DNA of 64,000 nucleotides from Fibrobacterota bacterium (GCA_042567505.1 JBHPJW010000008.1:1515-65514), one strand, 5' to 3'; positions 40,399 through 63,240 are shown, counted from the stretch's first letter. The notes: generated by a model from the sequence alone, not told the origin. Numbers and translations are program-made.

Positions 40399-40425
40399 TT
40401 TGTAACGGCGTGCCGCCGGCACGCC
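40399..40425. repeat. GC-rich palindromic repeat, copy 2
   Basis: TTTGTAACGGCGTGCCGCCGGCACGCC forms an inverted pair with copy 1 about 120 bp away. Confidence 0.6.
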
Positions 40426-40445
40426 TATTAATTTCAATTTCTGCC

Positions 40446-47498: not shown

Positions 47499-48182
47499 AT
47501 GAATTTGTCAGATTCTTCGGATTCCCATGGATATTTTGATGAAAATGATTCTGAATTATCAGGGCAAAAAATCATAATAATTGATTATGGATTGGGCAAT
47601 GTCAGGTCAGTAAGCGGGGCGGTGGAAAAATTAGGATTTCATCCCACTCTTTCTTCAAAAGTCGACGATCTGGAAACAGCTGACAAACTCATTCTTCCGG
47701 GAGTTGGGGCTTTTCAAGACGGAATGGAAAATTTAGTCCGGCTGGGTGTCGTGGATGTTTTAAACCACCTGGTGATGGAAGAGAGAAAACCGATACTTGG
47801 AATATGTTTGGGCGCCCAGTTGCTCGCAAGAGAAAGCTTTGAATTTGGAAGGCATGATGGGCTGGGGTGGATTGACGCTTCGGTCGTCAAGCTCAATGTG
47901 GAAAATTACGGTTTAAAAATCCCTCATGTGGGCTGGAATGATCTCTTTCAAACCAAAAAGAGCATTTTGTTCGATGGAATCATACCCGGAGCATTGTTTT
48001 ATTACGTCCACAGTTTCCACATCCAGTGTTCCGATGATAAGCATGTGGTTGGCGAGTGTGAATACGGCAGGCGTTTCGCTTCAGTTATCCAGAAGAGCAA
48101 TATTTACGCCACCCAGTTTCATCCTGAAAAAAGCCAATTTTATGGGATGATGTTATTGAAAAACTTTTTAACTAAAGCATAA
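47499..48182 (+). CDS. HisH-like glutamine amidotransferase (WbuY-type, glycan-cluster paralogue)
   Basis: 227-aa ORF with IIIIDYGLGNVRSV, GICLGAQLL and FHPEKS. It lies next to the HisF-like and WbuX-like genes. Confidence 0.85.
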   Translation: MNLSDSSDSHGYFDENDSELSGQKIIIIDYGLGNVRSVSGAVEKLGFHPTLSSKVDDLETADKLILPGVGAFQDGMENLVRLGVVDVLNHLVMEERKPILGICLGAQLLARESFEFGRHDGLGWIDASVVKLNVENYGLKIPHVGWNDLFQTKKSILFDGIIPGALFYYVHSFHIQCSDDKHVVGECEYGRRFASVIQKSNIYATQFHPEKSQFYGMMLLKNFLTKA

Positions 48183-48186
48183 GAGC

Positions 48187-48933
48187 ATGGTTCGGAACCG
48201 GTTAATGACAGTTTTAACGTTCAATAACGGGGTATTGTTCCGGACCAGGAATTTCAAACCGGATTACCGGTACACGGCAAATTTCATCGACCTATGGTCT
48301 GTTGATGAAATGGTTTTACTGGATATCACCAGACCAGGAGACGGCGACAGGGAAAATTTTTACCAGGTGGTGAATGAATTTTCAAAAAATTGTTTTGTGC
48401 CGATAACTGTGGGAGGCGGCATAAGCAGTGTGGAAGAAATAAACAACTTTCTTCGAATGGGCGCGGATAAGGTGGTGATAAACACGCATGCCCATAAGAA
48501 CCCGGCATTCATCAGGGAATCTTCCCGGTTGTTCGGCTCCCAATGTATTGTTGTGTCCATCGACGCCAAGCTGCAACTCAACAACGGATATGAGGCGCTT
48601 ATCAGCTTCGGTACGGAAGCAACGGGCTCGCCTCCCGAAGAATGGGCCAGACAAGCCGAAGCGCATGGCGCCGGGGAGATCCTGATAACGTCCATAGATA
48701 AAGACGGCACATTGGAGGGTTATGATAATGAGCTGAACCGTCTGGTGGCTGATGCTGTGGATGTTCCGGTTCTGGTTTGCGGCGGCGCGGGCAGCTGGCA
48801 GCATTTTGTGGACGGATTTACCATTGGAAAAGCTTCTGCCGTATGCACCACCAATATTTATCATTTTACCGAAACGAGCATTAAAAGCGCAAAGAGCTAT
48901 TTGACGCAATCGGAGATAACGGTAAGAATATAA
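48187..48933 (+). CDS. HisF-like cyclase subunit (WbuZ-type)
   Basis: 248-aa ORF with (beta/alpha)8 HisF-like sequence (PITVGGGI, ADKVVINT, EILITSIDKDGT, VLVCGGAG). Confidence 0.85.
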   Translation: MVRNRLMTVLTFNNGVLFRTRNFKPDYRYTANFIDLWSVDEMVLLDITRPGDGDRENFYQVVNEFSKNCFVPITVGGGISSVEEINNFLRMGADKVVINTHAHKNPAFIRESSRLFGSQCIVVSIDAKLQLNNGYEALISFGTEATGSPPEEWARQAEAHGAGEILITSIDKDGTLEGYDNELNRLVADAVDVPVLVCGGAGSWQHFVDGFTIGKASAVCTTNIYHFTETSIKSAKSYLTQSEITVRI

Positions 48934-48951
48934 GAGAGGAAGGTTGACGAA

Positions 48952-50091
48952 ATGGAATTTGGAAAAGAAAAAGGCGTTCGAAAAATAACCTATTGCAAGA
49001 GATGCATCATGCCGGATTCAAGACCGAGAATTGTATTTAACGAGGAAGGAGTCTGCAACGCTTGTCTCACGGCTGATGAAAAGATGAATATAGACTGGGG
49101 ACAACGGAAGGATGAATTTATCAAATACACGGAGACCTATAAGCGTTCTGATGGGAAGTGGGATTGCATCGTTCCCTGGAGCGGGGGGAAGGACAGCAGC
49201 TCCATAGCCTATCGGTTAAAGTATGATTTTGGAATGAATCCTCTGCTCGTTACCTTTTCGCCCATACTGCCTACTGAAATCGGCAACCAAAACCGCGAGT
49301 CTCTTATCGAACTTGGTTTTGACAACTTATTTTTCAGGGCCAACCATAGGGTGCATCGGAAATTAGCTAAGCGGTTTTTTATAGAACGGGGCAACCCCAA
49401 AGTTGCCTGGGATGCTGGTATTAATGCCATTCCGGTCATGGCGGCGCTCCGGTTTGACATACCCTTGCTGTTTTACGCGGAACATGGTGAGAGTGAATAT
49501 GGCGGAAAAGTGCTTACTGAAGAATCAAAAAAACTAAGGGATTTCACCGAGGTTATCGAACACCAGATTGGGGATGATCCGAGAAACTGGGTTGATGACG
49601 AGATAACTTTGAACGATATAACGCCTTATATCTATCCGGATATTGACTCGGTTAAGAAAGCGGGCATAAAAGCCTTTTATTTTTCCTATTTTTTCCGATG
49701 GAGCATGCTGGAGAACTACCGGTTAATTAAAACCAAGATAAAATTCCTTACCAATCCCAAGGGCCGGACCGATGGGACCTTTACGAATTTTGACAGTTTA
49801 GATGATAAAATCGATAACTTGTATTATTACATGCAATTCATAAAATTCGGGTTTGGGAGGACTGTCAGGGACTCTTGCCGGATGATCCAGAATGGGCAAA
49901 TGACCCGGGAAGAGGCGTTAGAGCTGGCGCAAAGATATGATAGCGAATTTCCATTCGAACATTTCAGTGAAGTCTTACACTTTTTGGATTTAACTGAAGA
50001 AGAATTCACCGCTATCGTGGACAAACACCGCAATCCGGAAATCTGGAATAGTGAGAAGGGACGGTGGAAACTCCGTTTCCCGCCCGAATAA
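48952..50091 (+). CDS. N-acetyl sugar amidotransferase (WbuX/PseA/WbpG family, PP-loop)
   Basis: 379-aa ORF with the N-terminal Zn-ribbon CKRCIMPDSRPRI.F.EEGVCNAC and the PP-loop VPWSGGKDSS. Confidence 0.85.
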   Translation: MEFGKEKGVRKITYCKRCIMPDSRPRIVFNEEGVCNACLTADEKMNIDWGQRKDEFIKYTETYKRSDGKWDCIVPWSGGKDSSSIAYRLKYDFGMNPLLVTFSPILPTEIGNQNRESLIELGFDNLFFRANHRVHRKLAKRFFIERGNPKVAWDAGINAIPVMAALRFDIPLLFYAEHGESEYGGKVLTEESKKLRDFTEVIEHQIGDDPRNWVDDEITLNDITPYIYPDIDSVKKAGIKAFYFSYFFRWSMLENYRLIKTKIKFLTNPKGRTDGTFTNFDSLDDKIDNLYYYMQFIKFGFGRTVRDSCRMIQNGQMTREEALELAQRYDSEFPFEHFSEVLHFLDLTEEEFTAIVDKHRNPEIWNSEKGRWKLRFPPE

Positions 50092-50130
50092 CCAGACGAA
50101 TTAATTGAACGAGAAGGAGAGAATGTTCTT

Positions 50131-50997
50131 ATGTCTAAAGCATACAATTGCGACTTATGCGGATCAAAGGATGCCGTCGAGGTGCCTTATGCCCGGTTAT
50201 ATACCAATGATCAGCCTGTTCATATATGCAAATCCTGCGGATTTGTGTATGTGAGAGAAAGAAGGACGCCTCAGGAAATCGCGAAGACCTGGTCTGAGGA
50301 ATTGTTCGGAGGGGCGTATACGGCAAAGATTCCGGCCGTCAAGGCCCGGCAGATGTATGTGGCTGACTTTATTGACGCCAAAATAGGCCTGCAGGGGAAA
50401 AAGCTGATAGATATCGGTGGAGGCGAAGGACAGTTTTCTCTCATGGCGCGGGACCTGTACCAGGCGGATATTTTCGCGATTGAGCCGTCGAAGCAAAACT
50501 GCGAATCCATGAGCAACATGGGGATTGCCTGCTATGAGGGTACCATTGAAGAATATCTGGAACAGAAAGATAAGCAACAGGCCGACATTGTCACTATCAT
50601 GTGGACCCTGGAAAATTGCGCCTTTTGCAGGGACATGATAAACGGCGCCCGGGACCTTCTGGCTGATGATGGATATATCGTCGTCGCCACAGGCAGCAGG
50701 ATTCTCGTTCCTTTTAAAAAGCCCCTTTATGATTATTTGTCAACGAACCCGGCTGATACACACGCGTTCAGGTTCAGCGCAAACACCCTGCGGGGCATAC
50801 TGGCGGTCAGCGGCTTTCGGCCCGAGCATATCAACCGGTTCCTTGACACTGATTACTTATGCGTGATTGCCGGGAAGTCGCCGAAAAACAGTTCCCTCTC
50901 CTGGGCGAAGGACGACTACTTGATGGTGCACGACTTTTTTGAACGATGGCACAGGGAAACCATCCACTACAGGACGCAATCATCGTATGAACACTAA
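50131..50997 (+). CDS. Class I SAM-dependent methyltransferase with N-terminal Cys4 ribbon
   Basis: 288-aa ORF with CDLCGS...CKSCGF followed by motif I LIDIGGGEGQF. Confidence 0.75.
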   Translation: MSKAYNCDLCGSKDAVEVPYARLYTNDQPVHICKSCGFVYVRERRTPQEIAKTWSEELFGGAYTAKIPAVKARQMYVADFIDAKIGLQGKKLIDIGGGEGQFSLMARDLYQADIFAIEPSKQNCESMSNMGIACYEGTIEEYLEQKDKQQADIVTIMWTLENCAFCRDMINGARDLLADDGYIVVATGSRILVPFKKPLYDYLSTNPADTHAFRFSANTLRGILAVSGFRPEHINRFLDTDYLCVIAGKSPKNSSLSWAKDDYLMVHDFFERWHRETIHYRTQSSYEH

Positions 50998-51910
50998 ATT
51001 CATCCATATCGGATGCCATAAATGCGGAAGCACGTTCATTCAGGGCGAGGTGTTGCCGAAATTAAAACACATCACTCCTGTTTCTTTTATGGAAGGCCAT
51101 CCCGTTGCCGAAGACATGGATTATCTTGTTCAGTGCGGTGAGCTCTATTATGATACTCACAAAGCGGAGGACGGCATACAGGCAAAGTTAAAAGCATCCT
51201 CAAATATATGCCTTTCTTCCGAAGCATTGAGCGGAACAGGCGTGGGGGTGTTGGGCGCAGGCCACCAAATACCCCATATCGCCTCCCGCTTGAGGCGGGT
51301 TTTCGGTGAGGTACCCGTTTTAATTTTGATCAGGAACCAGAAGTCCGCCATTGAGTCCCTCTATAAAGACGATGTCAAGTACGGATTCTTAATGGATTAT
51401 GAAGGGTGGTTTACTTCCCGGACAAATTCCCAGCAATTGAATTATTTTAAATATTCACCTTTAATTGAATGCTATCAAAAGTGTTTCGGAGAACAGAATG
51501 TCAAGGTCTTCCTGTTTGAGGAATTGTTCTCCCGGAAGACCATAGAAACCATTTTACAGGATTTTGATATTGAACATGAGGGCATGGACGATATTGATTT
51601 TAACAGAAAGTTTAATGACGCCTATTCATCCCCCAGCCTTATCGTCGCCAGATGGGTGAACAGGCTGTTCGGTTCGAAATTAACCTACGGAGTGGGCATC
51701 GGCCGGGATCCCGGGTTGAGAGCCTATAATTTCTGGCGGTATTCGCTTTCCAGAAAGGTTGACACAATGGCAGAGAAATGGAACGTTCCAAAACCAAAGT
51801 ACGACTTTAAAGGGTATGGTAAGCTGTTACGTGGACTATTCCAGGAAGACAATAAACGAACTGAAAAACTTACCGGAAAACAACTGAAAGCACATGGGTA
51901 TATCGTATGA
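50987..51910 (+). CDS. Sulfotransferase-like protein (tentative)
   Basis: The start is placed at MNTKFIHIGCHKCGSTFIQ, which resembles a 5'-PSB loop. LILIRNQKSAIESLY resembles a 3'-PB motif. It overlaps the upstream gene by 11 nt and is ATGA-coupled to the downstream gene. Confidence 0.4.
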   Translation: MNTKFIHIGCHKCGSTFIQGEVLPKLKHITPVSFMEGHPVAEDMDYLVQCGELYYDTHKAEDGIQAKLKASSNICLSSEALSGTGVGVLGAGHQIPHIASRLRRVFGEVPVLILIRNQKSAIESLYKDDVKYGFLMDYEGWFTSRTNSQQLNYFKYSPLIECYQKCFGEQNVKVFLFEELFSRKTIETILQDFDIEHEGMDDIDFNRKFNDAYSSPSLIVARWVNRLFGSKLTYGVGIGRDPGLRAYNFWRYSLSRKVDTMAEKWNVPKPKYDFKGYGKLLRGLFQEDNKRTEKLTGKQLKAHGYIV

Positions 51911-54900
51911 GTACAAATAAGAATATAGTGGTTTTCGCCCCTTACGGGACCTGGCTGGTGCACCATCAGGTGGACGCCATGATCGGCACGGCCTTGCGCC
52001 TGAGGGGATGCAACGTGCAGGTTATCGGTTGTGACGGCGTGTTCAAGGATTGCCTGCAGGCGGGAGTTCCCTTTGATGAGCAGGCCTGCCAGAACTGCAC
52101 GAAATCCGGAGAGAACTGGTTTTCTCAATTCCAGCTCAACATGACCTATCTGAGCCAGCTGCTGGAGTCTTCTGATACTGCAGATGCCGATGAATGGTCA
52201 TCGGCATTGCAGCCTGAAGAATTCGCCGATGCTGTTTTTGAGGGCAATAACCTGGGCTTATGGTCCCATGCAGGAATATGTTCAAAATTTTTTGTGAATA
52301 AGATGGATTTATCAGATCCCTCTCTTGTGGAGGCGCATCGAAACCTTCTGCGCAACAGCGCCTTATTGCAGCGTGCCATAAACAGATATTTTGACATGTT
52401 CCCTGTGGATCACGCCCTCTGTTATGGAGCGACGCTCCCTTATTATTACATCTTTCTCGAATTAGCGCGAAAGAGAAACATCCCCGTGGTAGTCCACGAA
52501 AGGGGCGGGCTCGACGGCAGCTTCTGGTTCTGTGAGAACGAAAATTGCGGAAGGATGGCAGGTAGAAAACCTTCCCTGGAAGAATGGAAAAAGATACCCC
52601 TGACCCGGGAACAATGCCTGGCTGTGAAACAATACAGCCAGGGAAGGGAACTGGGAAAAGGACTGAACAGGAGCTCGTTCTATTCGGCCCAGCCGGCCGA
52701 AGGCGACGTCCGCAGGATACTGCGCATTCCCCATGACGCCGGCATTATCGCTGTTTTCACCAACAGCGATTGGGAACTGGGCATGGGGAGGGCCTTTGTG
52801 GAACGGAGGTTCAGGCTGGCCATAGAGGCCATTCAACAAGCACTGAAAGCCCTGGAATCGCTGAAGTCCATTCACAATCCCTATATGGTTTTCCGCTTCC
52901 ACCCCAACATGGTGGGAGACGGCTATACGGATTTTCAATTTCTCCAGAATGTTATTGATAACAGCCATGCCATCCCGGATAATGTCCGGCTGGTAACTCC
53001 CAGAGAGCGATTGACTTCTTATCAGCTTATCTGGCATGCCGACGCAGCGCTCACTTTTGGCAGTACGACGGGACTGGAATCTATCATAAGGGGCTTGGGG
53101 GTGGCAAGCAGCGTGGACAGCCTGCATTCACTTATGGAAACAGGAGTAGACCGCATTTCCTCTGCCGATGATTATGTACGGGCCATAGAAGACGCCCTTG
53201 CCAGAACAAAAGACTATTCGATAGAGAACCTTCGGATGGCTTACCGGGGCTTTCATTATTACTTCTTTACTTTGAGTTATGAGTTTACGTCATTCGGAAT
53301 AAAGGACCATTATACGCCTGATATACGGCTGAAGGACATCAGCGAAATGCAGGAAGGCGCTGATCCGGCGCTGGACCTTATTTGTAACCATATTCTACGC
53401 GGAACTTCTCTTTTTCCTCTTCCGGGGGAAGAGGAGAAGAACCGACCTGACGGGGAAGAGCGCGCTTTCCTTGAAGAGGAATTAAGCGCTATCAAGGAAC
53501 ATCGCGCATCAGTCCGGCAACGCTCCAGAGATGCAGAAACGACTTTTCAGGAACCATGTGTCACGGTGATTCAGATCCATATCTCTAATGAAAAAAAGCC
53601 CTCTTCACCGTTTGCGCTCAGTTTGAAAACATCAAGGCACAAAGCATATAAGGTGATTGATGTGTACCTGACCGATATCTGTTCCTGGGTGCTTTCCCTC
53701 ACGCACCTCATGCCCCATCTCTCTGAATTTGTCTATATCGGGGCGGCAAATATGAAGTTAGACGAAAGCCTTTTTTCCAGCGGAATCGATCATTTGCAGG
53801 AGCATGAGCACCTTGACGGGGTGATGTGCGGGGGATGGCTATGCGGTGCTGACGGCATCTTGAAAAAACCTGTATTTGAGGTGTTTACCCAGAGACAAAA
53901 TCCTGACAATGCGGGCCTGGCCCAATTGATGATGCCCCTTCTGAAGTTCCCCCATTTCCTTCTTCCGTTCGTGGTCTGGCGAAAAAGCGGTTTGAAGGCG
54001 CTGGTGGATGTACTGTTGGACACCGAGCAGGTTTCCTCCGAAGGGCTTTTTCAGGAAATTCTGGGAGGGAACCATTTGAATATACAGAAGACCCTTATCC
54101 CGATGATCACGGTGTATGACGATATTCCTCCGGTTAAGAAGCGGACGTTCCTGCAGCCAATCCAGCCTGAGTCGAACAGGGATGAAATGACAGCCAGAGG
54201 AATTCAGCTCTATAAATCCCACAACTGGATTGAGGCCGAACAAGTGTTCCTGGCGGTCTCACTTGATTATCCGGAAGATCTCGAAATTCAGCTGTGGCTG
54301 GGCAGGCTTTATTGCGATATGGGAAAATATGCTCAATCGTTGCATCACCTCGAGGTAGCGGTAAAGGATCAGCAAAATAATTATAAGGGATTGATAACCA
54401 TCTCGCTGGTGGCAAAAAAACAACGGGAGCAGAAACTCTATAATTCTACCCGTCAGCTCCTTCATAAGCTCAATCCATCCTCCCCGGAGATCATTGAGAT
54501 GGAAATGAATCCAAATCCCACCGCGTTGTCATTAGCCGAACCTCAAACTCAACCATCCCAAAAGAAACCTATCCGTATGGTTTTCATTCAACCTGCCGAG
54601 CCATTTGGCGCTATGTCAGATTTTCCGCTTTCCATTATCGGGCTGGCGTCTATCCTTATAGAAAGCGGGATAGCGGTTGAAATACTTGATGCCCGGCTTG
54701 ATAATTTGAGCATCTCACAGACCCTTGAGCGTTTGGAAGCGGATCTGCCGGATGTCATAGGCATCACGGGTTTGGTGAATTCCTACCGCTATATCAAGGA
54801 TTTATGTTTTGAACTCAAACGAAGGCATCCTGACCTGCCCCTTCTGGCAGGCGGCGTGTTTATCATGTCTCAATCCGGGACGATTCTGCCACGGGTGCCG

Positions 54901-56517
54901 ATTGATGTCGCCTGCATTGGTGAGGGTGAAGAGATTATAGTTGAACTGGTTCAGAGAGTGGTCAACAGGGAGCCTCTGGAAGGAATAAACAACATCGCCT
55001 ACCTGGAGAATGGGGAATTGAAGACGGCGCCAATTAAAATTGTGGAGAATTTCGACAAATTTCCCTTGCCGGCGTATGAATTACTGCAAATGGAAAGGTA
55101 TTTAGGCGGACCCGAGACTTCACGTCATTTGCATCAAGATTTTTTCTTTCCCATAAACACCGGACGCGGTTGTGTTTATCACTGTTATTATTGCGGGCGA
55201 TTCAGCCATAAAGTAAGACGGGTTTCCCCTGAACGCCTGATTGAACACATGGATATGATACATGCCAAATATGGAATAGGCAGCTTTCTGTTCAGCGAAG
55301 ACAGCGCTCTGCATCCAAAAGAATGGATGGAAAGATTCTGCCATCTCATCATCGAACAGAAAAAAGGATACCGGTTTTTTTGCGTGGGCAGCCCTGATCA
55401 ATTAGACCGGAAAATGATCGAGTTACTCATCAAATCCGGCTGCATACAGACCAACGTGGCAGTGGAGCATTGGAATCCCGAGATTCAAAAAGCCTTTCTG
55501 CGGGTGAAGCAAAGCAAGGATGTTGTGAAGTGTTTGAGTCTTTTTAAGGAATTGAACTTGTATAATGACGGATTCAACATATTATGGGGACATCCGAAAG
55601 ACACGGCCAAATCATTTCAGGAGAGTTTTAAGAAATCAATCAGCATTGTTAACAAATTCGGTATCCCAAACGCCTGGGTGGTAGCTCTGGTCATTTACCC
55701 GAACTCCAAATTGATGAATGATGCCCTGAAATTCAAAAAAATCATTGATTATGAAGATTACATGTACAAATGCGGCGGTTATGGGCCGTATGTGAATTTA
55801 ACGCAGGAGGATGATGACGTTTATCGGGGAGTTATTGCGGAGCTTCGGTTCCTAGCCGGTATCGAGGAGTTGTTTGAAAAATTAAAATTCCTGACTCTGA
55901 ACGGGACACAACCGGATGTGCTGGACCAAATCCGCCTGAATCTGGAAAACCAGGTCAACATACTTGTCCAATTGAGACGGGTACTGTCGCTTCCGCCTGA
56001 GGCAAGAGAGCAATACCGGAAGTTTTTGGATCCGGTTTTAAATGCTGAAATGTATGATCCCGAAAAGAACTACTACAGGGAAATCGCCTGTTTTAGAGAA
56101 TTATTGGAATTGCCGCCTGATACGAAAGTAGCTGTGTATGCTCCCAACGCCTTCCCCGGTGATAATCTTGGCAGGCTGTTCAACAGTATCCGGGAATCGG
56201 GAGTGAAGATGACAGCCTTTATTGATGATACTCCCGCCTTTACCAGATTTGAAGGATATGAAGTCATTACTATTCAAGAATGCTCAGGGCATCAGGCGGA
56301 TGTTGTGGTGATCTCGGGCAGTTTGCCGGACAGCAATGGCATTAAGGACAGGCTCTTGGCTCTTGGCGCAAAACAAGTCGTCACAATAAGCCCGGAAAGC
56401 CTTGCCATTAAGCCATGGGCCTCCCCTGGAATGGTGACAGGGTATTACAACAAAAAATTCTGGCGGGTTGCTTTTAAACAAAATACCTTGGAATATATAA
56501 GGATAAACATGGAATAG
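51907..56517 (+). CDS. 1,536-aa multidomain fusion: transferase-like N-region + GT-A-like remnant + TPR + cobalamin-binding radical SAM + Rossmann-like C-terminus
   Basis: The ORF is uninterrupted. The radical-SAM motif CVYHCYYC lies at nt 55171-55194. It is preceded (from nt ~54571) by a flavodoxin/B12-binding-like segment (IRMVFIQP...VIGITGL...). TPR-like helices span ~54184-54486. The N-terminal ~470 aa contain FRFHPN. The C-terminal ~100 aa (from nt 56119) look like a PglD-N/NeuD-type Rossmann module (KVAVYAPN...FIDD...VVVISG). Confidence 0.8.
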   Translation: MSTNKNIVVFAPYGTWLVHHQVDAMIGTALRLRGCNVQVIGCDGVFKDCLQAGVPFDEQACQNCTKSGENWFSQFQLNMTYLSQLLESSDTADADEWSSALQPEEFADAVFEGNNLGLWSHAGICSKFFVNKMDLSDPSLVEAHRNLLRNSALLQRAINRYFDMFPVDHALCYGATLPYYYIFLELARKRNIPVVVHERGGLDGSFWFCENENCGRMAGRKPSLEEWKKIPLTREQCLAVKQYSQGRELGKGLNRSSFYSAQPAEGDVRRILRIPHDAGIIAVFTNSDWELGMGRAFVERRFRLAIEAIQQALKALESLKSIHNPYMVFRFHPNMVGDGYTDFQFLQNVIDNSHAIPDNVRLVTPRERLTSYQLIWHADAALTFGSTTGLESIIRGLGVASSVDSLHSLMETGVDRISSADDYVRAIEDALARTKDYSIENLRMAYRGFHYYFFTLSYEFTSFGIKDHYTPDIRLKDISEMQEGADPALDLICNHILRGTSLFPLPGEEEKNRPDGEERAFLEEELSAIKEHRASVRQRSRDAETTFQEPCVTVIQIHISNEKKPSSPFALSLKTSRHKAYKVIDVYLTDICSWVLSLTHLMPHLSEFVYIGAANMKLDESLFSSGIDHLQEHEHLDGVMCGGWLCGADGILKKPVFEVFTQRQNPDNAGLAQLMMPLLKFPHFLLPFVVWRKSGLKALVDVLLDTEQVSSEGLFQEILGGNHLNIQKTLIPMITVYDDIPPVKKRTFLQPIQPESNRDEMTARGIQLYKSHNWIEAEQVFLAVSLDYPEDLEIQLWLGRLYCDMGKYAQSLHHLEVAVKDQQNNYKGLITISLVAKKQREQKLYNSTRQLLHKLNPSSPEIIEMEMNPNPTALSLAEPQTQPSQKKPIRMVFIQPAEPFGAMSDFPLSIIGLASILIESGIAVEILDARLDNLSISQTLERLEADLPDVIGITGLVNSYRYIKDLCFELKRRHPDLPLLAGGVFIMSQSGTILPRVPIDVACIGEGEEIIVELVQRVVNREPLEGINNIAYLENGELKTAPIKIVENFDKFPLPAYELLQMERYLGGPETSRHLHQDFFFPINTGRGCVYHCYYCGRFSHKVRRVSPERLIEHMDMIHAKYGIGSFLFSEDSALHPKEWMERFCHLIIEQKKGYRFFCVGSPDQLDRKMIELLIKSGCIQTNVAVEHWNPEIQKAFLRVKQSKDVVKCLSLFKELNLYNDGFNILWGHPKDTAKSFQESFKKSISIVNKFGIPNAWVVALVIYPNSKLMNDALKFKKIIDYEDYMYKCGGYGPYVNLTQEDDDVYRGVIAELRFLAGIEELFEKLKFLTLNGTQPDVLDQIRLNLENQVNILVQLRRVLSLPPEAREQYRKFLDPVLNAEMYDPEKNYYREIACFRELLELPPDTKVAVYAPNAFPGDNLGRLFNSIRESGVKMTAFIDDTPAFTRFEGYEVITIQECSGHQADVVVISGSLPDSNGIKDRLLALGAKQVVTISPESLAIKPWASPGMVTGYYNKKFWRVAFKQNTLEYIRINME

Positions 56518-56572: not shown

Positions 56573-57268
56573 ATGAGGAGTGTCGCCATCATTCAGGCCA
56601 GAATGGGTTCAAACCGCCTGCCCGGCAAGGTGCTCAGCCGCCTGAATGGAAAACCCATGCTTACCTACCTTATTGAAAGGGCGCAAAAAAGCCGGTTAAT
56701 AGAAGAGATTGCTGTCGCCACCTCTGAAAAGGCTGAAAATGACGGGATTGCCTCTCTCTGCCGGGAACTAGGCGTAGACTGCTTTCGCGGATCGGAACAT
56801 AACGTGGCAAGCAGATTCTACACCATTCTGAAAGAAAAGAACTCTGCCTGTTTTGTGCGTATCTGTGCGGACAGTCCCTTGCTGGACCCTATTCTCCTGG
56901 ACAGGGCAGTTACCAGGTTAAGAGAGAAAAAATGTGATCTGGCCACTAATATTTTCCCGCGCACGTTTCCAGCCGGGCAGTCGGTTGAAGCGATGCAAAC
57001 ACGGGCGTTCGTCGATGCTTTCAGTGACTTCACCACACCGGATGATTTTGAACATGTAACCCGGTTTTTTTACCGGAATGCTTCCAGATTTGCTATCTCC
57101 AATTTCAAATGCGAAGGGGATTTCAGCCAGGTGAAATTCTGTATTGATACCGCTGCGGATTTCAACAAGATGAAGGCCCTTATGAAAAAAATGGGAAAAG
57201 ACCACCTTAATTATGGGTACAAAGACCTGATTCGGTTTTGGTCCATGGACTCTTTAAAAGCAGCCTGA
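56573..57268 (+). CDS. Acylneuraminate cytidylyltransferase-family protein (SpsF-type)
   Basis: 231-aa ORF. VAIIQARMGSNRLPGKVL...GKPML is the SpsF/COG1861-type N-terminus. Confidence 0.8.
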   Translation: MRSVAIIQARMGSNRLPGKVLSRLNGKPMLTYLIERAQKSRLIEEIAVATSEKAENDGIASLCRELGVDCFRGSEHNVASRFYTILKEKNSACFVRICADSPLLDPILLDRAVTRLREKKCDLATNIFPRTFPAGQSVEAMQTRAFVDAFSDFTTPDDFEHVTRFFYRNASRFAISNFKCEGDFSQVKFCIDTAADFNKMKALMKKMGKDHLNYGYKDLIRFWSMDSLKAA

Positions 57269-57276
57269 TTTTGAGG

Positions 57277-58275
57277 ATGTTGAATGTCGGTATTATCGGA
57301 TTGGGTGTTGGTAATCAACATATCGCGGGGTATGAATCCCACCCGGCCTGCCGGATAACCCGTTTATGTGATTTCTCCCCGGAAAAGAAAACCTATGCGA
57401 TCGAAAATTATCCCCAGTATGCTTTTACCGATGATGCGAATGAAGTCTTGACCGACCCGGATATTCAGGTGGTTTCCATAGCCAGTTACGACAATTACCA
57501 TGCCGGGCAGGTACGGCTGGCCCTCAGGCATGATAAGCATGTATTTATTGAAAAACCTTTGTGTCTGTTTGAAGAAGAAGCCGTTTCCATCCGGGAACTT
57601 CTCAGGCGTAAGGGATCGCTCCGCCTTTCTTCAAACCTGATACTGCGCAAGTGCCCCCGGTTTATCAAACTGAAAGGACTTATAGACAAGGGCGTTCTGG
57701 GCCGTCTATTCAGCGTTGAGGGGGATTATAACTATGGCAGGGTACATAAAATAACAGACGGCTGGCGGGGGCGCATAGATAACTATAACGTGTTTTACGG
57801 CGGAGGCGTACACCTCATCGACCTGCTGCGCTGGCTTACGGGAGACAGGATTGCCGAGGTTTTCGCCTATGGCAACCGAATGGTGACGGAAAAGAGCGCC
57901 TTCAGATATAACGATTTCATTTCCGCTCATCTGCAATTTGAAAGCGGCATGATAGGAAAGGTCAGTTCCAATTACGGCTGCGTCATGCCCCATTTCCACA
58001 TGATAAGCATATACGGCGACAAAGGTACTTTTTTTAATGATTTTGACTGCGGCAAGCTTTATTTTTCCAGGGATCAGGAAGAGCCTTATGAAAAGCTGGA
58101 TGAGGAGTATCCAGGATATCATAAGGGCGATCTCATCCGCAGTTTTATTGATGCTGTTTTGGGAAACGGGAAAGCGGAAATTACGGCCGACGAGGTTTTT
58201 TGCACCATGTCGGTTTGTTTTGCGGTGGAGAAATCCATAGAAGAGGGAAGACCGGTTCAGGTTAACTATTTGTAG
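57277..58275 (+). CDS. Gfo/Idh/MocA-family NAD(P)-dependent sugar oxidoreductase
   Basis: The start is at MLNVGIIGLGVGNQH after GAGG; the ORF track offers 57238. HVFIEKPL is the family motif. Confidence 0.85.
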   Translation: MLNVGIIGLGVGNQHIAGYESHPACRITRLCDFSPEKKTYAIENYPQYAFTDDANEVLTDPDIQVVSIASYDNYHAGQVRLALRHDKHVFIEKPLCLFEEEAVSIRELLRRKGSLRLSSNLILRKCPRFIKLKGLIDKGVLGRLFSVEGDYNYGRVHKITDGWRGRIDNYNVFYGGGVHLIDLLRWLTGDRIAEVFAYGNRMVTEKSAFRYNDFISAHLQFESGMIGKVSSNYGCVMPHFHMISIYGDKGTFFNDFDCGKLYFSRDQEEPYEKLDEEYPGYHKGDLIRSFIDAVLGNGKAEITADEVFCTMSVCFAVEKSIEEGRPVQVNYL

Positions 58276-58285
58276 GGAAGGGGAC

Positions 58286-59440
58286 ATGGCGAACATACCG
58301 TTTGGCAAACCAATCATAGGAGAAGAAGAGCTCCAATCTGTCCGTGAAGTCATGGAAAGCGGAGTGCTGGCCCATGGCCCGAAGATACATGAATTTGAAA
58401 AGGCCTTTGCCGGTTTCACAGGCGCGCCCTATGCTGTGGGCGTTTCTTCCTGTACTGCGGCGCTGCATTTGTTTTATTTTCATGCCGGCATAGGACAGGG
58501 CGATGAAGTTATTGTTCCCGCCCAAACCCATACCGCCACGGCTCACGCGGTTTCCCTGACAGGCGCCACTCCGGTATTTGTGGACGCGGAGGAAGAGACA
58601 GGAAACATTAACATCGGCCATATTGAGCAGGCAATTACCGGAAAAACCAGAGCGATTTCTGTGGTCCATTACCTGGGTATGCCGGTGCAAATGGATAAAG
58701 TGACGGCCATAGCGGAGAAACGGGGCCTGCTGGTGGTGGAAGACTGCGCTCTTTCGATTGGCGCCAGGATTAATGGAGTTCATACAGGCCTCTTTGGCGA
58801 TGCCGGTTGTTTTTCTTTCTATCCCGTGAAGCACATGACGACGGCGGAGGGTGGAGCGCTCATAACCAGAGATCCCGGACTGGCAAAGCAGATTACGAAT
58901 AAACGGGCCTTTGGTATGGATAAACATGTGGGGGTCCGCACGGTTCCCGGTTTGTATGATATCCAGGGACTGGGATTTAATTACCGCATGAATGAAATGC
59001 AGGCCGCTATCGGAGTCCATCAGGTTGCCCGTCTGCCTGGTTTTTTAGCCGCGCGAAAACGCAATTATAAGCTGCTGGCGGAGCGTTTAAGAGACAGCGC
59101 CTGCTCAGACCATTTTCGTTTATTGCAGTCAAGCGGGGACGGATATGAAAGTTCCTATTACTGTTTGACGATTCTCCTTACCGGTAAAGCGGCTGAGAGA
59201 CGTGATGAGATACTTCTCGCATTGAAAAACCAAAACATCGGCACCAGTATTTATTATCCTCATCCAGTGCCGCTCATGAGTTATTACCGGGAGAAGTTCG
59301 GGTTCCGGCCGGAAGACTTTCCTGTGGCCGCCATGCTGAGTAATACGGGAGTGGCGCTCTCTGTCGGCCCTCATATCACCGAAGAAAACATAGATACCAT
59401 GGTAAAAGCATTAGAGGTTGTCATCATCGAATCTTACTAA
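58286..59440 (+). CDS. DegT/DnrJ/EryC1/StrS-family PLP-dependent sugar aminotransferase
   Basis: 384-aa ORF with full-length family similarity (IPFGKPIIGEEE..., SCTAALHL, FSFYPVKHMTTAEGG, YYC). Confidence 0.92.
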   Translation: MANIPFGKPIIGEEELQSVREVMESGVLAHGPKIHEFEKAFAGFTGAPYAVGVSSCTAALHLFYFHAGIGQGDEVIVPAQTHTATAHAVSLTGATPVFVDAEEETGNINIGHIEQAITGKTRAISVVHYLGMPVQMDKVTAIAEKRGLLVVEDCALSIGARINGVHTGLFGDAGCFSFYPVKHMTTAEGGALITRDPGLAKQITNKRAFGMDKHVGVRTVPGLYDIQGLGFNYRMNEMQAAIGVHQVARLPGFLAARKRNYKLLAERLRDSACSDHFRLLQSSGDGYESSYYCLTILLTGKAAERRDEILLALKNQNIGTSIYYPHPVPLMSYYREKFGFRPEDFPVAAMLSNTGVALSVGPHITEENIDTMVKALEVVIIESY

Positions 59441-59450
59441 GGAGGTCCCT

Positions 59451-60467
59451 ATGCCGTCAGTTGCCGGAAAAAAGATAGTATTGATTGGGGGAGCTGGATT
59501 TATTGGACACAATCTGGCTCTGGCGCTTGCGGGAAAACAAGCCGAAGTGCATATTATTGACGGTCTGGAGGTTAATAATGTCCTTTCGGTCATCACCAGC
59601 GATCAGCCGGTGCGGAACCGTGAACTTTTTTTAAAGGTCCTGCACACACGGCTGGAGATGCTTATGGCAAAGGGAATCCCCGTCCATGTGCAGGACGCGC
59701 GAAACTATCACAAGTTAAGCCAGCTTATGGTCACCATTAAACCCGATGTCATCGTACATCTGGCCGCCGTATCGCACGCAAATCTTTCAAATAAAGATCC
59801 CTACAGCACCTTTGACCATAATCTCCGTACCCTAGAGAATGCGTTGGATAATGTAAAAACAAAAGGAAAACATTTTATTTTCTTTTCTTCCAGCATGGTG
59901 TATGGTAATTTTGGCAGCGAAGGCGTCACTGAAGAATCTCCCTGTGAGCCTTTGGGAATATACGGCGCCCTTAAATATTCCGGGGAAAAAATTGTCAAGG
60001 CCTATAATCAGGTGTTTGATTTGCCCTACACTATTATCAGGCCTTCCGCATTATATGGGGAACGGTGTATCAGCGGCCGGGTCGGACAAAAGTTTATTGA
60101 AGCCGCCCTCTTTGATGAGGAGATAACCATTGCAGGTGACGGCAGCGACAAGCTTGATTTCACCTATATTGACGACCTGGTAAACGGCGTGATTCTCACC
60201 ATGGAAAACGAAAATGCGAAAAATCAGGTATTCAACCTTACTTATGGGGAGGGACGGACGCTTGCCGATATGGCGGGGGTCCTTCAGGAGCATTTTCAGG
60301 ATGTGAAGATAAAAAACGTGCAGAAAGACAAGCTCATGCCCGACAGGGGCTCATTGTACGTGGATAAGGCGAAAAGACTGCTGGGGTATGCGCCGTCCTG
60401 GCCGCTGGAAAAAGGGTACTCGAAATACATCAACTGGTATAAAGGCTTTTTTGAAGGAAAAAGATGA
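59451..60467 (+). CDS. Extended-SDR NAD-dependent sugar epimerase/dehydratase
   Basis: The start is at MPSVAGKKIVLIGGAGFIGHNL after GGAGG; the ORF track offers 59418. The motifs GxxGxxG, SSSMVYG and YGALK (YxxxK) are present. Confidence 0.88.
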   Translation: MPSVAGKKIVLIGGAGFIGHNLALALAGKQAEVHIIDGLEVNNVLSVITSDQPVRNRELFLKVLHTRLEMLMAKGIPVHVQDARNYHKLSQLMVTIKPDVIVHLAAVSHANLSNKDPYSTFDHNLRTLENALDNVKTKGKHFIFFSSSMVYGNFGSEGVTEESPCEPLGIYGALKYSGEKIVKAYNQVFDLPYTIIRPSALYGERCISGRVGQKFIEAALFDEEITIAGDGSDKLDFTYIDDLVNGVILTMENENAKNQVFNLTYGEGRTLADMAGVLQEHFQDVKIKNVQKDKLMPDRGSLYVDKAKRLLGYAPSWPLEKGYSKYINWYKGFFEGKR

Positions 60468-61432
60468 GAATCGTTTTCTGGACAAAAGGGGCGCGCGGCG
60501 CAAATTGCCTGCGAGAAGTGCTCAGGGAAAAATACCACATCCATACCCTGGTTCTTCAGCATCAGCCGGGAAAACAATGGTATGAGGATATTCTGGCCAT
60601 TGCAGAAGAACATGCCATTCCGGTTTTTGAAACTGAAGAGCCTAACGGCGAAACGGCCCGTACTCACCTCACCTCTCTGGGCGCTGATGTATTTGTGCTG
60701 GCCGGTTACGGTCTTATTCTCAAAGCCGAAACGATTGCCATACCCAAACTCATGTGCATCAACCTGCACGGAGGGGCGCTACCGCGCTACCGCGGCTCCT
60801 CTCCGCTAAATTGGGTTCTGATAAAAGGTGAGCGCTCTTTTGGCATCTCGATTATCAAGGTGGATCCGGGCGTGGATACCGGGGATGTGATTGTGGAACG
60901 CTCATTCTCTCTGAGCGGTCATTCTACGATAGCTGATTTGCATGCCCTGGCTAATGAGCATTTCCCAAAAATGCTGGTAGAAGCGCTTCAGGCCATTGCG
61001 TCGGGCACCGTTACCTTTAGGAAACAGTTGGAACAGGACTCGGCCTATTATCCTCTGCGGTTTCCTGAGGACGGTTTTATTTTATGGGACCAGCTGACGG
61101 CTGAAGAAATCCACAATCGAATCCGCGCTTTGACCAGGCCATATCCATGCGCATACACCTACTTCAACCGTCAACGGGTGGACCTGATTTCCTCATCGCT
61201 GAGAGAAAGGGACTTTTACGGAGAACCGGGCAGAATCTATCTGGCGAACAAGGGAAAACTGCTGGTATGCGCCAGGGATAAATGCCTGTGGATAGATGAA
61301 GCGTTTTTTCATGAGGGCGGTGAGCCTCTCTATGAGGCGGCAAGCCGTTATGAGAAACTGGCCACCGTGAGGGAAATGGCGGAGGCGTATTACACAGGGG
61401 AACGGACAGGAATTGAAGATAGGAAAGTTTGA
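60464..61432 (+). CDS. Sugar N-formyltransferase-like protein (Fmt-fold, N- and C-terminal domains)
   Basis: 322-aa ORF. INLHGGALPRYRGSSPLNW and DTGDVI supply the Asn/His/Asp catalytic set. It lacks the tRNA-Fmt-typical N-terminal PDRPAGRG segment. It is ATGA-coupled to the upstream gene. Confidence 0.85.
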   Translation: MRIVFWTKGARGANCLREVLREKYHIHTLVLQHQPGKQWYEDILAIAEEHAIPVFETEEPNGETARTHLTSLGADVFVLAGYGLILKAETIAIPKLMCINLHGGALPRYRGSSPLNWVLIKGERSFGISIIKVDPGVDTGDVIVERSFSLSGHSTIADLHALANEHFPKMLVEALQAIASGTVTFRKQLEQDSAYYPLRFPEDGFILWDQLTAEEIHNRIRALTRPYPCAYTYFNRQRVDLISSSLRERDFYGEPGRIYLANKGKLLVCARDKCLWIDEAFFHEGGEPLYEAASRYEKLATVREMAEAYYTGERTGIEDRKV

Positions 61433-62426
61433 TATAATTGAAAAGTGCTTCATCGTTGCCGAAATCGGCAACAATCATGAAGGCGATGTCTCCCTGGCGT
61501 GTGAACTCATCGGCCGGGCCGCGGAATGCGGAGTTGACGCCGTCAAGTTCCAAACGTATAGAACGGACCATTATGTCAACGGGGCGGACAAACACAGGGC
61601 AGACATGCTCAGGAAGTTTGAATTGACCTACGGGGACTTTGAAAAACTGGCCGGCCGGGCAGGGGAACTGGGACTGGAATTCTTATCCACTCCATTTGAC
61701 ATCGCTTCCGCGGAGTTCCTCAGCACCATCGTATCCGCGCTGAAAATCTCCTCCTCGGACCTTACCTTTTACCCTCTTCTGGAAACCTGCGCCGAAACCG
61801 GCTTGCCCCTGGTGCTGTCCACCGGATTATCCAACCTGCAAGAGATCGGCCGGGCAGTGGAATTGCTTCAGGCTCGCTGGAAGGAAAACGGCCTGTCCCA
61901 GCAGATGGCGCTCCTGCATTGCATCGCCAGCTATCCGGCTCCACCGGAGGAAACCAACCTCAGGGCCCTGCGGACTTTACGGCGGGAATTCGGATGCGCC
62001 ATCGGGTATTCCGACCATACCATCGGTTCTACGGCCGCCATCATGGCCATTGCGCAGGGAGCGAGAATTATTGAAAAACACTTCACTCTCGATCATCACT
62101 ACTCGGACTTTCGGGACCATTTGTTGTCGGCGGAACCGGAGGAGATGAAGGAACTCGTCCGGTCGGTGAGGCAGGCCGAAAGCATGCTGGGTACGGGAGA
62201 AAAGGTCCCGCAGCCTTGTGAAAAACCATCGCTTTCCCTTATGCGGCGCTCCATCACAGCGGCGACGGACCTGGCTGAAGGCGACCTTATCACTTTTGAT
62301 AACATAACCTGGACAAGGCCGGCCGGGGGATTGCCGCCCGGGGAGGAATCGCGCATAATACATAAAAGGGCCGCCAGGGGAATCAGGCGCGGGGAGATGA
62401 TTACTCAGGAGAACGTCGGAGAATGA
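61413..62426 (+). CDS. NeuB-family nonulosonic acid synthase (NeuB/PseI/LegI type) with SAF domain
   Basis: 337-aa ORF with a TTG start. It carries FIVAEIGNNHEGD, KFQT, SDHT.G and a C-terminal SAF-like segment (ITAATDLAEGDLIT). Confidence 0.9.
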   Translation: MKIGKFDIIEKCFIVAEIGNNHEGDVSLACELIGRAAECGVDAVKFQTYRTDHYVNGADKHRADMLRKFELTYGDFEKLAGRAGELGLEFLSTPFDIASAEFLSTIVSALKISSSDLTFYPLLETCAETGLPLVLSTGLSNLQEIGRAVELLQARWKENGLSQQMALLHCIASYPAPPEETNLRALRTLRREFGCAIGYSDHTIGSTAAIMAIAQGARIIEKHFTLDHHYSDFRDHLLSAEPEEMKELVRSVRQAESMLGTGEKVPQPCEKPSLSLMRRSITAATDLAEGDLITFDNITWTRPAGGLPPGEESRIIHKRAARGIRRGEMITQENVGE

Positions 62427-62456
62427 GGGTGCCGGGATCTTTGATGTTTCATGAAT

Positions 62457-62482
62457 GCCGGTACCCGGCTTTTCGTTTTTTC
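62457..62482 (+). terminator. Weak candidate intrinsic terminator after the NeuB-family gene
   Basis: GCCGG-TAC-CCGGC is followed by TTTTCGTTTTTT. The stem is short, and a larger alternative pairing exists (GGGTGCCGG...CCGGTACCC). Confidence 0.3.
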
Positions 62483-62529
62483 TTCCTCCCAACACCCATG
62501 GGCCGTTCCCGTCTTTGATTCTGTCGGAA

Positions 62530-63240
62530 ATGAAGATCGTACTTCTCACCACGCAGACCACGCACCACACCTATTTCGTGAAAAAGGTCCTGGAACAATA
62601 CGCCCTGGAAGCGGTCTTCCTTGAAGAACAGCCCGTGCAGCCGCCGTTTGAAGTCAATCATCCGTTTGAGGCGGAAAGGGAAACCTATGAGCGGGACCTG
62701 TGGTTTGAGGGAAAAGCTCCCGGGATAGCCGATTTACAAAAACCATTAGCTTATGATACCATGAACAATGCAGATGCGGTGGGGGCCCTGGCGGAGCTGG
62801 GCCCTGATGTGGCGGTGGTTTTTGGGACCGGCAAACTCAATTCTTCCGTCATTGCCGCCTGTCCCGCGGGCATCATAAACCTCCATGGTGGCGATCCGGA
62901 GGAATACCGGGGCCTGGATTCCCACCTTTGGGCCATCTATCATAGTGATTTCGGTAACCTTATCACTACCCTGCATTGTCTGAATGATGAGCTTGATGAC
63001 GGAGCCGTCATTGGCAAACAGGCGCTGGCCATAAGACCGGGTATGCCGTTGAAGGAACTGCGCAGCGTCAACACGGAGGCATGCCTTTCTCTCGCCCTGA
63101 ACGCCCTGGCAACCTGGGAACAGGAAGGCAGGTTTCACCAGACGGCGCAGCGGAAAAAAGGACGGTATTATTCCTTTATGCCGGCGGTGTTAAAGAATAT
63201 CTGTCAGAGGCGCTTTTCCGCTTACACCAGGGAATTATGA
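62530..63240 (+). CDS. Second formyltransferase-fold protein (N-terminal catalytic domain only)
   Basis: The start is at MKIVLLTTQ; the ORF track offers 62455. INLHGGDPEEYRGLDSHLWAI and LDDGAVI retain the Asn-x-His...Asp pattern. Confidence 0.65.
   Translation: MKIVLLTTQTTHHTYFVKKVLEQYALEAVFLEEQPVQPPFEVNHPFEAERETYERDLWFEGKAPGIADLQKPLAYDTMNNADAVGALAELGPDVAVVFGTGKLNSSVIAACPAGIINLHGGDPEEYRGLDSHLWAIYHSDFGNLITTLHCLNDELDDGAVIGKQALAIRPGMPLKELRSVNTEACLSLALNALATWEQEGRFHQTAQRKKGRYYSFMPAVLKNICQRRFSAYTREL

Follow-up and report, generated by a model that had tools for sequence, protein, structure and literature searches.

The window analysed here is a stretch of 64,000 nucleotides (nt) of DNA from a Fibrobacterota bacterium (GCA_042567505.1 JBHPJW010000008.1:1515-65514), and our subject is one open reading frame (ORF) in it, at 51907..56517 on the + strand. 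The ORF starts with ATG and translates without a stop into a five-module fusion protein of 1536 amino acids (aa). Our reading, to which we give a probability of roughly 0.55, is that a nonulosonic-acid transferase has here been fused to a tailoring radical enzyme that uses S-adenosylmethionine (SAM). The gene product would be a cytoplasmic multi-module enzyme assembling a nonulosonic-acid (legionaminic/pseudaminic-type, Leg/Pse) glycan. In the proposed mechanism the N-terminal domain (N1, aa 1-546) would bind a sugar activated with cytidine monophosphate (CMP) through an R-x-H-P motif and transfer it to an acceptor, maybe a lipid-linked glycan or a protein. The following GT2-like domain (D2, aa 551-745) would be a second transferase or an acceptor-binding module, and tetratricopeptide repeats (TPRs) would tether or dock partners. 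The cobalamin-type radical enzyme (aa 880-1536) would tailor the sugar, an acyl substituent or the nucleotide-linked precursor, before or after transfer, possibly by methylation of an unactivated carbon, which is the step we favour. What the analysis shows are the folds, the motifs, the conserved fusion and the presence of both modules near NeuB and CMP-synthetase genes; donor sugar, acceptor, radical chemistry and its timing relative to transfer are inferred from these.

The fusion was found in a second, independent sample. P0002, a protein from an independent metagenome in an unrelated ENA assembly, is the only other full-length fusion; it is 44% identical and collinear with aa 4-1530, junctions included. 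The gene order around it (locus L001) is the same as in the window: NeuB, HisH, HisF, amidotransferase, methyltransferase, a 323-aa unknown and the big gene. The ORF is the longest of its part of the window, its GC content is even (0.42-0.51), and all modules of the protein are intact, with the invariant residues kept. NCBI holds an identical entry (P0001) named 'radical SAM protein [Fibrobacterota bacterium]'. The long ORF could be an artefact, either an assembly chimera or two genes joined by a frameshift: the source is a metagenome-assembled genome (MAG), and the two halves are separate genes in most relatives. However, the collinear homologue, its gene order and the uniform GC content make a chimera very unlikely; the fusion ORF is real, and we give an artefact of either kind hardly any weight.

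A first-pass annotation, made from the sequence alone, had described a single uninterrupted 4.6-kb ORF with five distinguishable parts, joined by an ATGA overlap to the upstream ORF 50939..51910. The translation, the placing of the five parts and the overlap, seen in '...atcgtATGAgtaca...', all agreed with this. It had also named an assembly chimera as what would undo the fusion, which was not upheld, and had proposed a search for the fusion in homologues, in which P0002 was found.

A recurrent gene pair in nonulosonic-acid clusters

Eight loci with the radical-SAM unit and its C-terminal tail were examined (the window, L001, L004, L005, L006, L112, L113 and L114). Nonulosonic-acid genes were detected in all eight, as NeuB and/or CMP-synthetase with DegT, short-chain dehydrogenase/reductase (SDR), formyltransferase, PIG-L and WbqC. 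An N1-type domain is fused to the radical-SAM-plus-tail unit in two of the loci (window, L001), is encoded by the next gene in three (L005, L113, L114) and is found in the same cluster in one (L004). Since N1-type and radical-SAM genes adjoin or co-cluster in other bacteria, the window protein unites a recurring pair of genes in the manner of a Rosetta-stone fusion. An undescribed modification of surface sugars is likely, because both modules are fused here and are neighbouring genes in other bacteria.

The idea that the polypeptide couples transfer with a radical step came from the first-pass annotation and fared unevenly. The fusion is conserved in P0002, but it is rare: our first three homologue searches yielded 159 proteins, nearly all of them family members, and just 2 of these carry the radical-SAM module, which is usually a separate gene. 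The string of radical-SAM-plus-tail, GFO oxidoreductase, DegT and SDR recurs in the window and L006, and the order in L112 is SDR, radical SAM, DegT. Because the stand-alone gene in L112 and L006 sits among SDR, DegT and GFO genes, action on a nucleotide-sugar intermediate is suggested, and the radical-SAM unit may work on such a precursor with no mechanistic coupling to transfer.

The N1-D2 half is linked to nonulosonic-acid genes independently of the radical enzyme. A degenerate DNA pattern for RHHP...NVRxxMP drew 105 stretches from GTDB species genomes, 37 with true N1-D2 proteins and 68 chance matches that served as control. Within 8-kb windows, NeuB homologues were present at 15 of the 37 true loci as compared to 0 of the 68 controls, and CMP-synthetase homologues at 10/37 as compared to 0/68. 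Among the carriers are many cyanobacteria (Nostoc, Calothrix, Anabaena and others), along with Bdellovibrionota, Verrucomicrobia, a MAG of the Kosmotogaceae and Geomonas limicola Red745, which is in culture. Synteny was kept in L001, L002 and L102.

L102 is the Geomonas locus (NZ_BLXZ01000004.1 16001-24000), with the order HisH, HisF, unknown, GNAT, NeuB, B12 radical SAM, N1-D2, all on one strand with near-zero spacing, in a cultured isolate tractable for genetics. Its B12 radical-SAM gene, between NeuB and N1-D2 (733 aa), encodes 657 aa, has no tail and has a ~200-aa N-terminal extension, and so differs from that of the window. As a cultured carrier of a related gene pair, this strain makes experiments feasible.

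Cyanobacteria, mostly filamentous (Nostoc, Calothrix, Anabaena, Trichormus, Aulosira, Oscillatoria, Limnothrix), made up about half of the confirmed N1-D2 genome matches (L030, L038, L039, L044, L054, L055, L058, L066, L067, L076, L079, L081, L083, L084, L086, L089, L090, L101, L104 and L106). Their N1-D2 genes often adjoin NeuB and CMP-synthetase, which implies widespread nonulosonic-acid glycans in the phylum.

The position that the radical-SAM module holds in the window protein is filled in other ways elsewhere. Among 39 long relatives, the slot after N1-D2 is taken by Methyltransf_24 in 18 and by other SAM-dependent methyltransferases in several more; Glyco_trans_1_2 (7), TPR, GT2, GT41 and a sulfotransferase were also found there. 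The general architecture is thus a transferase with a tailoring module.

Some of the clusters are more elaborate. Those of L004, L005, L112, L113 and L114 contain up to three further radical-SAM/SPASM genes, besides genes for giant proteins (1600-2700 aa) with an N1-like domain at the start; the giants of L005 and L114 carry a second B12 radical-SAM domain at their end. The L004 cluster lies next to the genes for flagellin and the flagellar hook-associated FlgK, and the L112 cluster next to Wzm/Wzt ABC-transporter genes.

The radical-SAM module and its tail

Two Pfam domains were identified above their cut-offs in the radical-SAM module (aa 880-1296): a B12-binding (flavodoxin-like) domain at aa 913-1014 (54643..54948, +; PF02310, 42.3 bits, cut-off 32.1) and the radical-SAM core at aa 1083-1242 (55153..55632, +; PF04055, 65.8 bits, cut-off 29.5). 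The motif C1089-x3-C1093-x2-C1096 lies at 55171-55194 (+), none of its three cysteines varies among 27 family members, and the B12-binding domain was detected in 27 of 27 relatives. The reading of this part as a B12-binding module followed by a CX3CX2C radical-SAM motif at these nucleotides had been made in the first-pass annotation, and the profiles support its predicted membership in class B (B12-binding) of the radical-SAM enzymes. The order of a B12-binding domain and then a CX3CX2C radical-SAM barrel is also that of class B enzymes with sugar or CMP-linked substrates, namely GenK, Fom3, CysS, TokK, OxsB and the dehydratase AprD4.

Unlike the known class B enzymes, the window protein has a family-specific 240-aa tail, is set in a nonulosonic-acid cluster and scores far below all NCBIfam cut-offs. 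None of the NCBIfam subfamilies (BchE, ApyD, BzaD, KedN5, PhpK, HpnR, TsrM and others) reached its cut-off for the window protein; the top scores were those of the cyclase BchE (100 bits, cut-off 481) and ApyD (93.6, cut-off 750), and the rest were lower. PF22674, present in the precomputed annotation of two radical-SAM relatives, did not come up again in our scan at E up to 0.1.

With aa 881-1536 as query, 29 stand-alone proteins of 537-1053 aa were found, which share 39-53% identity with it over 76-99% of its length, mostly 96-99%; the 26 that were aligned all include the tail. As stand-alone homologues span both parts, the radical-SAM core and tail are a conserved, usually stand-alone unit.

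The tail (aa 1297-1536; 55795..56514, +) was modelled with AlphaFold (pLDDT, the predicted local distance difference test, 89.9). The model contains a three-helix bundle (~aa 1303-1378), the invariant Cys1395, a small Rossmann-like domain (~aa 1407-1494) and a C-terminal beta-hairpin. Foldseek gave Rex-family NAD(H) domains (E ~1e-4) and biliverdin reductase as the best matches, and the top 50 were Rex, biliverdin reductase and erythrose-4-phosphate dehydrogenase N-domains. The first-pass annotation had placed a PglD-N/NeuD-like Rossmann tail here. Its beta/alpha domain is present from ~aa 1407 (nt 56125), but the PglD-N/NeuD identity was not supported: the nearest structures are Rex, PglD/NeuD is absent from the Foldseek top 50, and Pfam PglD_N gave no match to the tail at E up to 10, nor in 27 relatives at E up to 0.1. 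A tail profile against PDB sequences gave nothing useful. No glycine-rich dinucleotide loop is conserved in the tail alignment, which makes a built-in NAD(P)H-binding reductase partner unlikely. On its model, we regard the tail as a degenerate nucleotide-binding-like (Rossmann-like) domain of a generic kind.

The first-pass annotation had proposed C-methylation as the chemistry, and this is now one of several options. That the module is a methylase is possible, though in our estimate somewhat short of an even chance; methylation is favoured mainly because methyltransferases predominate in the slot after N1-D2. The family profile matched, among PDB sequences, AprD4 (1.2e-13), OxsB (4e-13) and CysS (2e-12), then TsrM and TokK, so the solved relatives are a mixture of methylases and non-methylases, and the nearest of them include the dehydratase AprD4 and the ring-contracting OxsB. 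These first two matches speak for a module that does not methylate and instead performs an AprD4-like dehydration/deoxygenation, an epimerisation, a skeleton rearrangement or an acyl cyclisation, with the transferase half unchanged. The B12-like domain would in that case be a cofactor site or a degenerate scaffold. A domain of this type can be without its cofactor, as in AprD4. The top NCBIfam match, far under its cut-off as it is, is to a cyclase, and the gene strings of the window, L006 and L112 put the gene among keto-/amino-sugar-nucleotide enzymes. However, most characterised B12-binding radical-SAM enzymes are methylases, sister proteins have ordinary methyltransferases in the same slot, and the tail offers no likely reductase partner. 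We consider the non-methylase rather unlikely and prefer methylation. Fom3 acts on a cytidylylated substrate, so that a CMP-linked sugar would not be without precedent as the substrate of such an enzyme.

To our knowledge, no nonulosonic-acid pathway has been described with a radical-SAM step. Within the literature covered, which was incomplete, no paper joining radical SAM with nonulosonic, pseudaminic or legionaminic acid was found; this is absence of evidence only, and it agrees with the statement in the first-pass annotation that no characterised pathway of this kind was known to it to use such an enzyme. The radical-SAM family could yield new sugar chemistry and enzymes for modified sialic-acid analogues.

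The N-terminal transferase domains

N1 (51907..53544, +) was identified by AlphaFold and Foldseek as a domain of the GT-B fold of glycosyltransferases (GTs), and it is a putative CMP-nonulosonate transferase. The model of aa 1-760, built from 67 sequences, had a pLDDT of 93.5 and a predicted template-modelling (TM) score of 0.92. Among the matches listed (top 50) in a Foldseek search against the PDB, only GT-B superfamily enzymes were found, all on N1. The entries of the KpsC transferase of beta-Kdo (3-deoxy-D-manno-oct-2-ulosonic acid), 6mgc, 8fuw, 8fux and 6mgb, had E-values of 3e-6 to 2e-5 and target-normalised TM-scores of 0.46-0.52, which were the highest among the matches listed, the others being ~0.3. 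A transferase fold had been suspected from the sequence, and the GT-B model with its best TM-scores to KpsC supports it. The landmarks given for the first ~470 aa were also right, but that length was not, since the domain is about 546 aa and closes with a long helix at aa 516-546.

The motif R330-F-H332-P333 (52894..52905, +) is a (K/R)xHP motif, with H332 and P333 invariant and R330 conserved to at least 90%; R.HP was found in 151 of 155 family members. In sialyl- and retaining Kdo-transferases (K/R)xHP contacts the cytosine of the CMP-sugar donor by packing and by hydrogen bonds (PMC12887879). The HP motif had already been taken as a hallmark of several CMP-sugar transferase families, and the two motifs are the same. 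Invariant across the 67 N1 family members are C42, C49, C61, C64, E290, H332, P333 and E391; both the Cys patch and FRFHPN (aa 329-334) of the first-pass annotation are present. The four cysteines (CDGVFKDC...CQNC; 52030..52098, +) are located in the model in a loop and helix between strand 36-41 and helix 58-73, and they probably form a structural metal site. The motif H197-E198-R199-G200 (52495..52506, +), at a strand end in the first Rossmann half, is conserved to at least 90% at H197, E198 and G200 and is a candidate catalytic acid/base region.

Sequence matches to N1 were weak, but those from four independent libraries converge on the R-x-H-P stretch and are all to CMP-sugar (ulosonate) transferases. 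These were KpsC 6mgd among PDB sequences (aa 320-433), NCBIfam KpsS (E=0.004, 16.4 bits, cut-off 600, within aa 320-433), the NCBIfam BFO_1060 family (marginal, E=0.058, aa 320-433) and Pfam Capsule_synth (PF05159), which matches 5 of the 39 long relatives (best E 5.4e-6) and did not match the window's own protein, in full or in segments. A Maf-type flagellin nonulosonate transferase was rejected, as neither the protein nor its segments matched MAF_flag10/DUF115 in Pfam. Fold, motif, these homologies and genomic context are together best explained if N1 is a CMP-nonulosonate glycosyltransferase, which we consider probable, with about two chances in three.

Several observations weigh against our reading. 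N1 of the window protein has no Pfam or NCBIfam match above a curated cut-off. A conserved QxxxD, the nucleophile of retaining Kdo transferases, was not seen in the alignments, where the conserved Q305 is followed by hydrophobic residues, and the D/E-D/E-G conserved in the GT-B sialyltransferases (GT38, GT52, GT80) was not found in them either, the HP being present. The Foldseek E-values of UDP-GlcNAc (uridine diphosphate N-acetylglucosamine) 2-epimerases/NeuC are as good as that of KpsC. The radical-SAM module fits no characterised subfamily, and its nearest solved relatives include the non-methylating AprD4 and OxsB. An N1-type gene is absent within 10 kb of the radical-SAM-plus-tail unit in L006 and L112, which argues against an obligatory coupling of that unit to transfer.

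The epimerase matches have to be considered further. Foldseek E-values were similar for natural-product GTs, UDP-GlcNAc 2-epimerases/NeuC and KpsC, and the epimerases and NeuC are among the top matches (E 4e-7 to 4e-6). No homologue of NeuC or LegG (Epimerase_2) or of PseG (Glyco_tran_28_C) was detected among the cluster ORFs scanned at window 40410-63240, nor in L001 and L002. N1 could on these grounds be a nucleotide-sugar hydrolase/2-epimerase that replaces PseG, LegG or NeuC and supplies the hexosamine of NeuB. Several results speak against it and leave it quite improbable: the target-normalised TM-scores of these enzymes are ~0.3 as compared to ~0.5 for KpsC; the invariant R-x-H-P is a CMP-sugar transferase signature, and every weak sequence match is to a CMP-sugar transferase. 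L005 and L114 hold a PseG-type Glyco_tran_28_C gene besides the N1-type protein, and N1 is habitually fused to Glyco_trans_1_2, GT2, GT41 and O-methyltransferases, that is, to glycan assembly and tailoring. We retain the transferase as the reading of N1.

D2 (53557..54141, +) is probably a divergent GT2-like (GT-A) domain, judged by its model, hhalign and a hidden Markov model (HMM). It has alternating beta/alpha character in the AlphaFold model, is packed on N1 and has a pLDDT above 90. In hhalign against four GT2 domains from the loci analysed it gave P=3.4e-4 with a probability of 38%, in a register that puts the near-invariant D619-E620-S621 (53761-53769, +) on the DXD position and 'WRK' on the GT2 'RR' segment. 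The D2 HMM, searched among 633 ORFs, matched Pfam-GT2 proteins of the window (E=7.4e-5) and L004 (E=7.5e-6); a segment scan gave no Pfam match, GT2 or other, to D2 itself. The degenerate GT-A fold that the first-pass annotation had seen from CVTVIQIH (aa 551) onwards is moderately supported by this register and these HMM matches. At least 71 of the 159 proteins have D2 after N1, and many members of ~730-750 aa consist of N1 and D2 alone.

The TPR repeats are at aa 763-830 (54193..54396, +), and the helical region may reach ~aa 860. Pfam matches were found where TPR-like helices had been noticed, with TPR_19 marginal at 25.5 bits on the isolated segment (cut-off 25, E=1.7e-5) and 20.2 bits on the full protein, and TPR_2 at E=6.8e-5 on the isolated segment. 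TPRs are also C-terminal in the N1-D2 relatives P0028 and P0029 and N-terminal in the stand-alone radical-SAM relative P0163. Their recurrence in both families suggests, by analogy with FlmG, that they may dock the two modules together or dock the acceptor.

N1-D2 is a large family without a Pfam model of its own. The family had seemed rare in word-indexed searches (11 and 6 proteins), an impression overturned by an exhaustive profile search, in which 8,876 clusters at 50% identity were found at E ≤ 1e-3 and 1,697 at E ≤ 1e-30. Few bacterial transferases of sialic-acid-like sugars have been identified, although such sugars are found on flagella, S-layers, capsules and lipopolysaccharides and influence immune recognition (PMC5420450). 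With its tight link to NeuB/CMP-synthetase, the N1-D2 family is a testable candidate for the missing transferase family. By fusion and adjacency it is tied to a cobalamin-type radical-SAM family that occurred solely in nonulosonic-acid clusters among the eight loci examined. Neither family has a characterised member.

We compared the window protein with known systems. KpsC, KpsS, WbbB, KpsS1 and KrkA are retaining ulosonic-acid transferases of CAZy families GT107, GT99, GT118 and GT140 (Pfam Capsule_synth). The window protein resembles this group in its GT-B-derived fold, with the best TM-scores to KpsC, and in its (K/R)xHP CMP-binding motif; the group uses CMP-activated ulosonic-acid donors, and KpsS1 demonstrates that it can use CMP-pseudaminic acid. 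WbbB and KrkA also join an ulosonate transferase to other GT or tailoring domains via helical linkers (PMC12887879). Unlike the group, the window protein has no Capsule_synth match, matches the KpsS profile at E=0.004 only and has no QxxxD that we could recognise, and its N1 is much larger and has the invariant four-cysteine site and the HERG motif, which are undescribed for those families. We place the window protein as a variant of a known plan, in which a modular glycosyltransferase for ulosonic acids carries a tailoring enzyme.

The Tannerella forsythia proteins Tanf_01245 and TFUB4_00887 (BFO_1060 family) are genetically proven transferases of Pse/Leg derivatives with an HP motif and a predicted GT-B fold (PMC5420450). 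They come from another lineage of the FCB group (Fibrobacterota-Chlorobiota-Bacteroidota) and from a cluster making amidino-modified sugars (PMC5420450). Unlike the window protein, they are ~445 aa long and have no GT2-like, TPR or radical-SAM modules, and the profile match is marginal. FlmG of Caulobacter crescentus, whose TPRs bind the flagellin acceptor and whose GT-B domain transfers pseudaminic acid (PMC7591256), is, compared by description, similar in its combination of TPR repeats and a GT-B domain. It differs in being 596 aa long with the TPR domain N-terminal, and no flagellar genes were seen in the scanned parts of the window.

A broader reading takes N1-D2, widespread in cyanobacteria, Bdellovibrionota, Geobacteraceae and Fibrobacterota, as an unclassified GT family dedicated to Leg/Pse-type sugars, with an attached radical-SAM enzyme that alkylates (with cobalamin) or otherwise modifies the nonulosonic acid or its CMP form. 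We regard it as doubtful in this full form. If true, it would mean a branched or chain-extended nonulosonic acid of an undescribed kind.

Neighbouring genes in the window

The nonulosonic-acid setting had been recognised from the sequence, and profile searches bore it out on both sides of the fusion gene. Upstream, HisH-like, HisF-like and WbuX N-acetyl-sugar amidotransferase genes (WbuX TIGR03573, 329 bits, cut-off 203) and then a SAM methyltransferase gene are located at 47499..50997 (+); judged by these profiles, they are a predicted module for acetamidino formation and N-methylation. Downstream, at 56573..63240 (+), follow a CMP-sugar synthetase, a GFO/IDH/MocA oxidoreductase, a DegT aminotransferase, an SDR dehydratase/epimerase, a formyltransferase, a NeuB-family synthase and a second formyltransferase-like gene. 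The pathway also requires a hydrolase/2-epimerase acting on a nucleotide sugar; its gene may be elsewhere, or the product of 40410-41381 or 50939-51910 may serve.

The coupled gene directly upstream of the fusion gene (50939..51910, +) is 323 aa long by ORF, with a likely start at Met17. A homologue was found directly 5' of P0002 (L001 7726-8697, E=7e-113). The protein had no Pfam, NCBIfam or PDB sequence match, so the label 'sulfotransferase-like' given in the first-pass annotation lacks profile support. A P-loop-like 'HIGCHKCGSTF' stands near the probable start, and the label may be kept as a possible, unverified one.

A glutamine amidotransferase fused to a chorismate-binding enzyme (PabA/PabB- or anthranilate-synthase-like, 697 aa) is encoded at 45241-47334 (+), with a GT2 gene on one side and the HisH/HisF/WbuX genes on the other. 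In a nonulosonic-acid cluster it is unusual to meet an aromatic-amine building block, and this enzyme might provide an acyl substituent.

About 13 kb upstream, at 32206-39216 (-), a 2336-aa secreted protein was found with Laminin_G_3, Big_13, He_PIG and PPC domains and a C-terminal sorting tail for type IX secretion. As the cargo of the Tannerella type IX secretion system bears Pse/Leg-capped O-glycans, this protein might by analogy be a glycoprotein acceptor. At the other end, a partial gene at 63240-64000 (+) encodes a NodB-type polysaccharide deacetylase ('FVITFDDGF...HSHNH'), and the cluster runs beyond the window end. The order of a formyltransferase and then a deacetylase is common to the window and L002.

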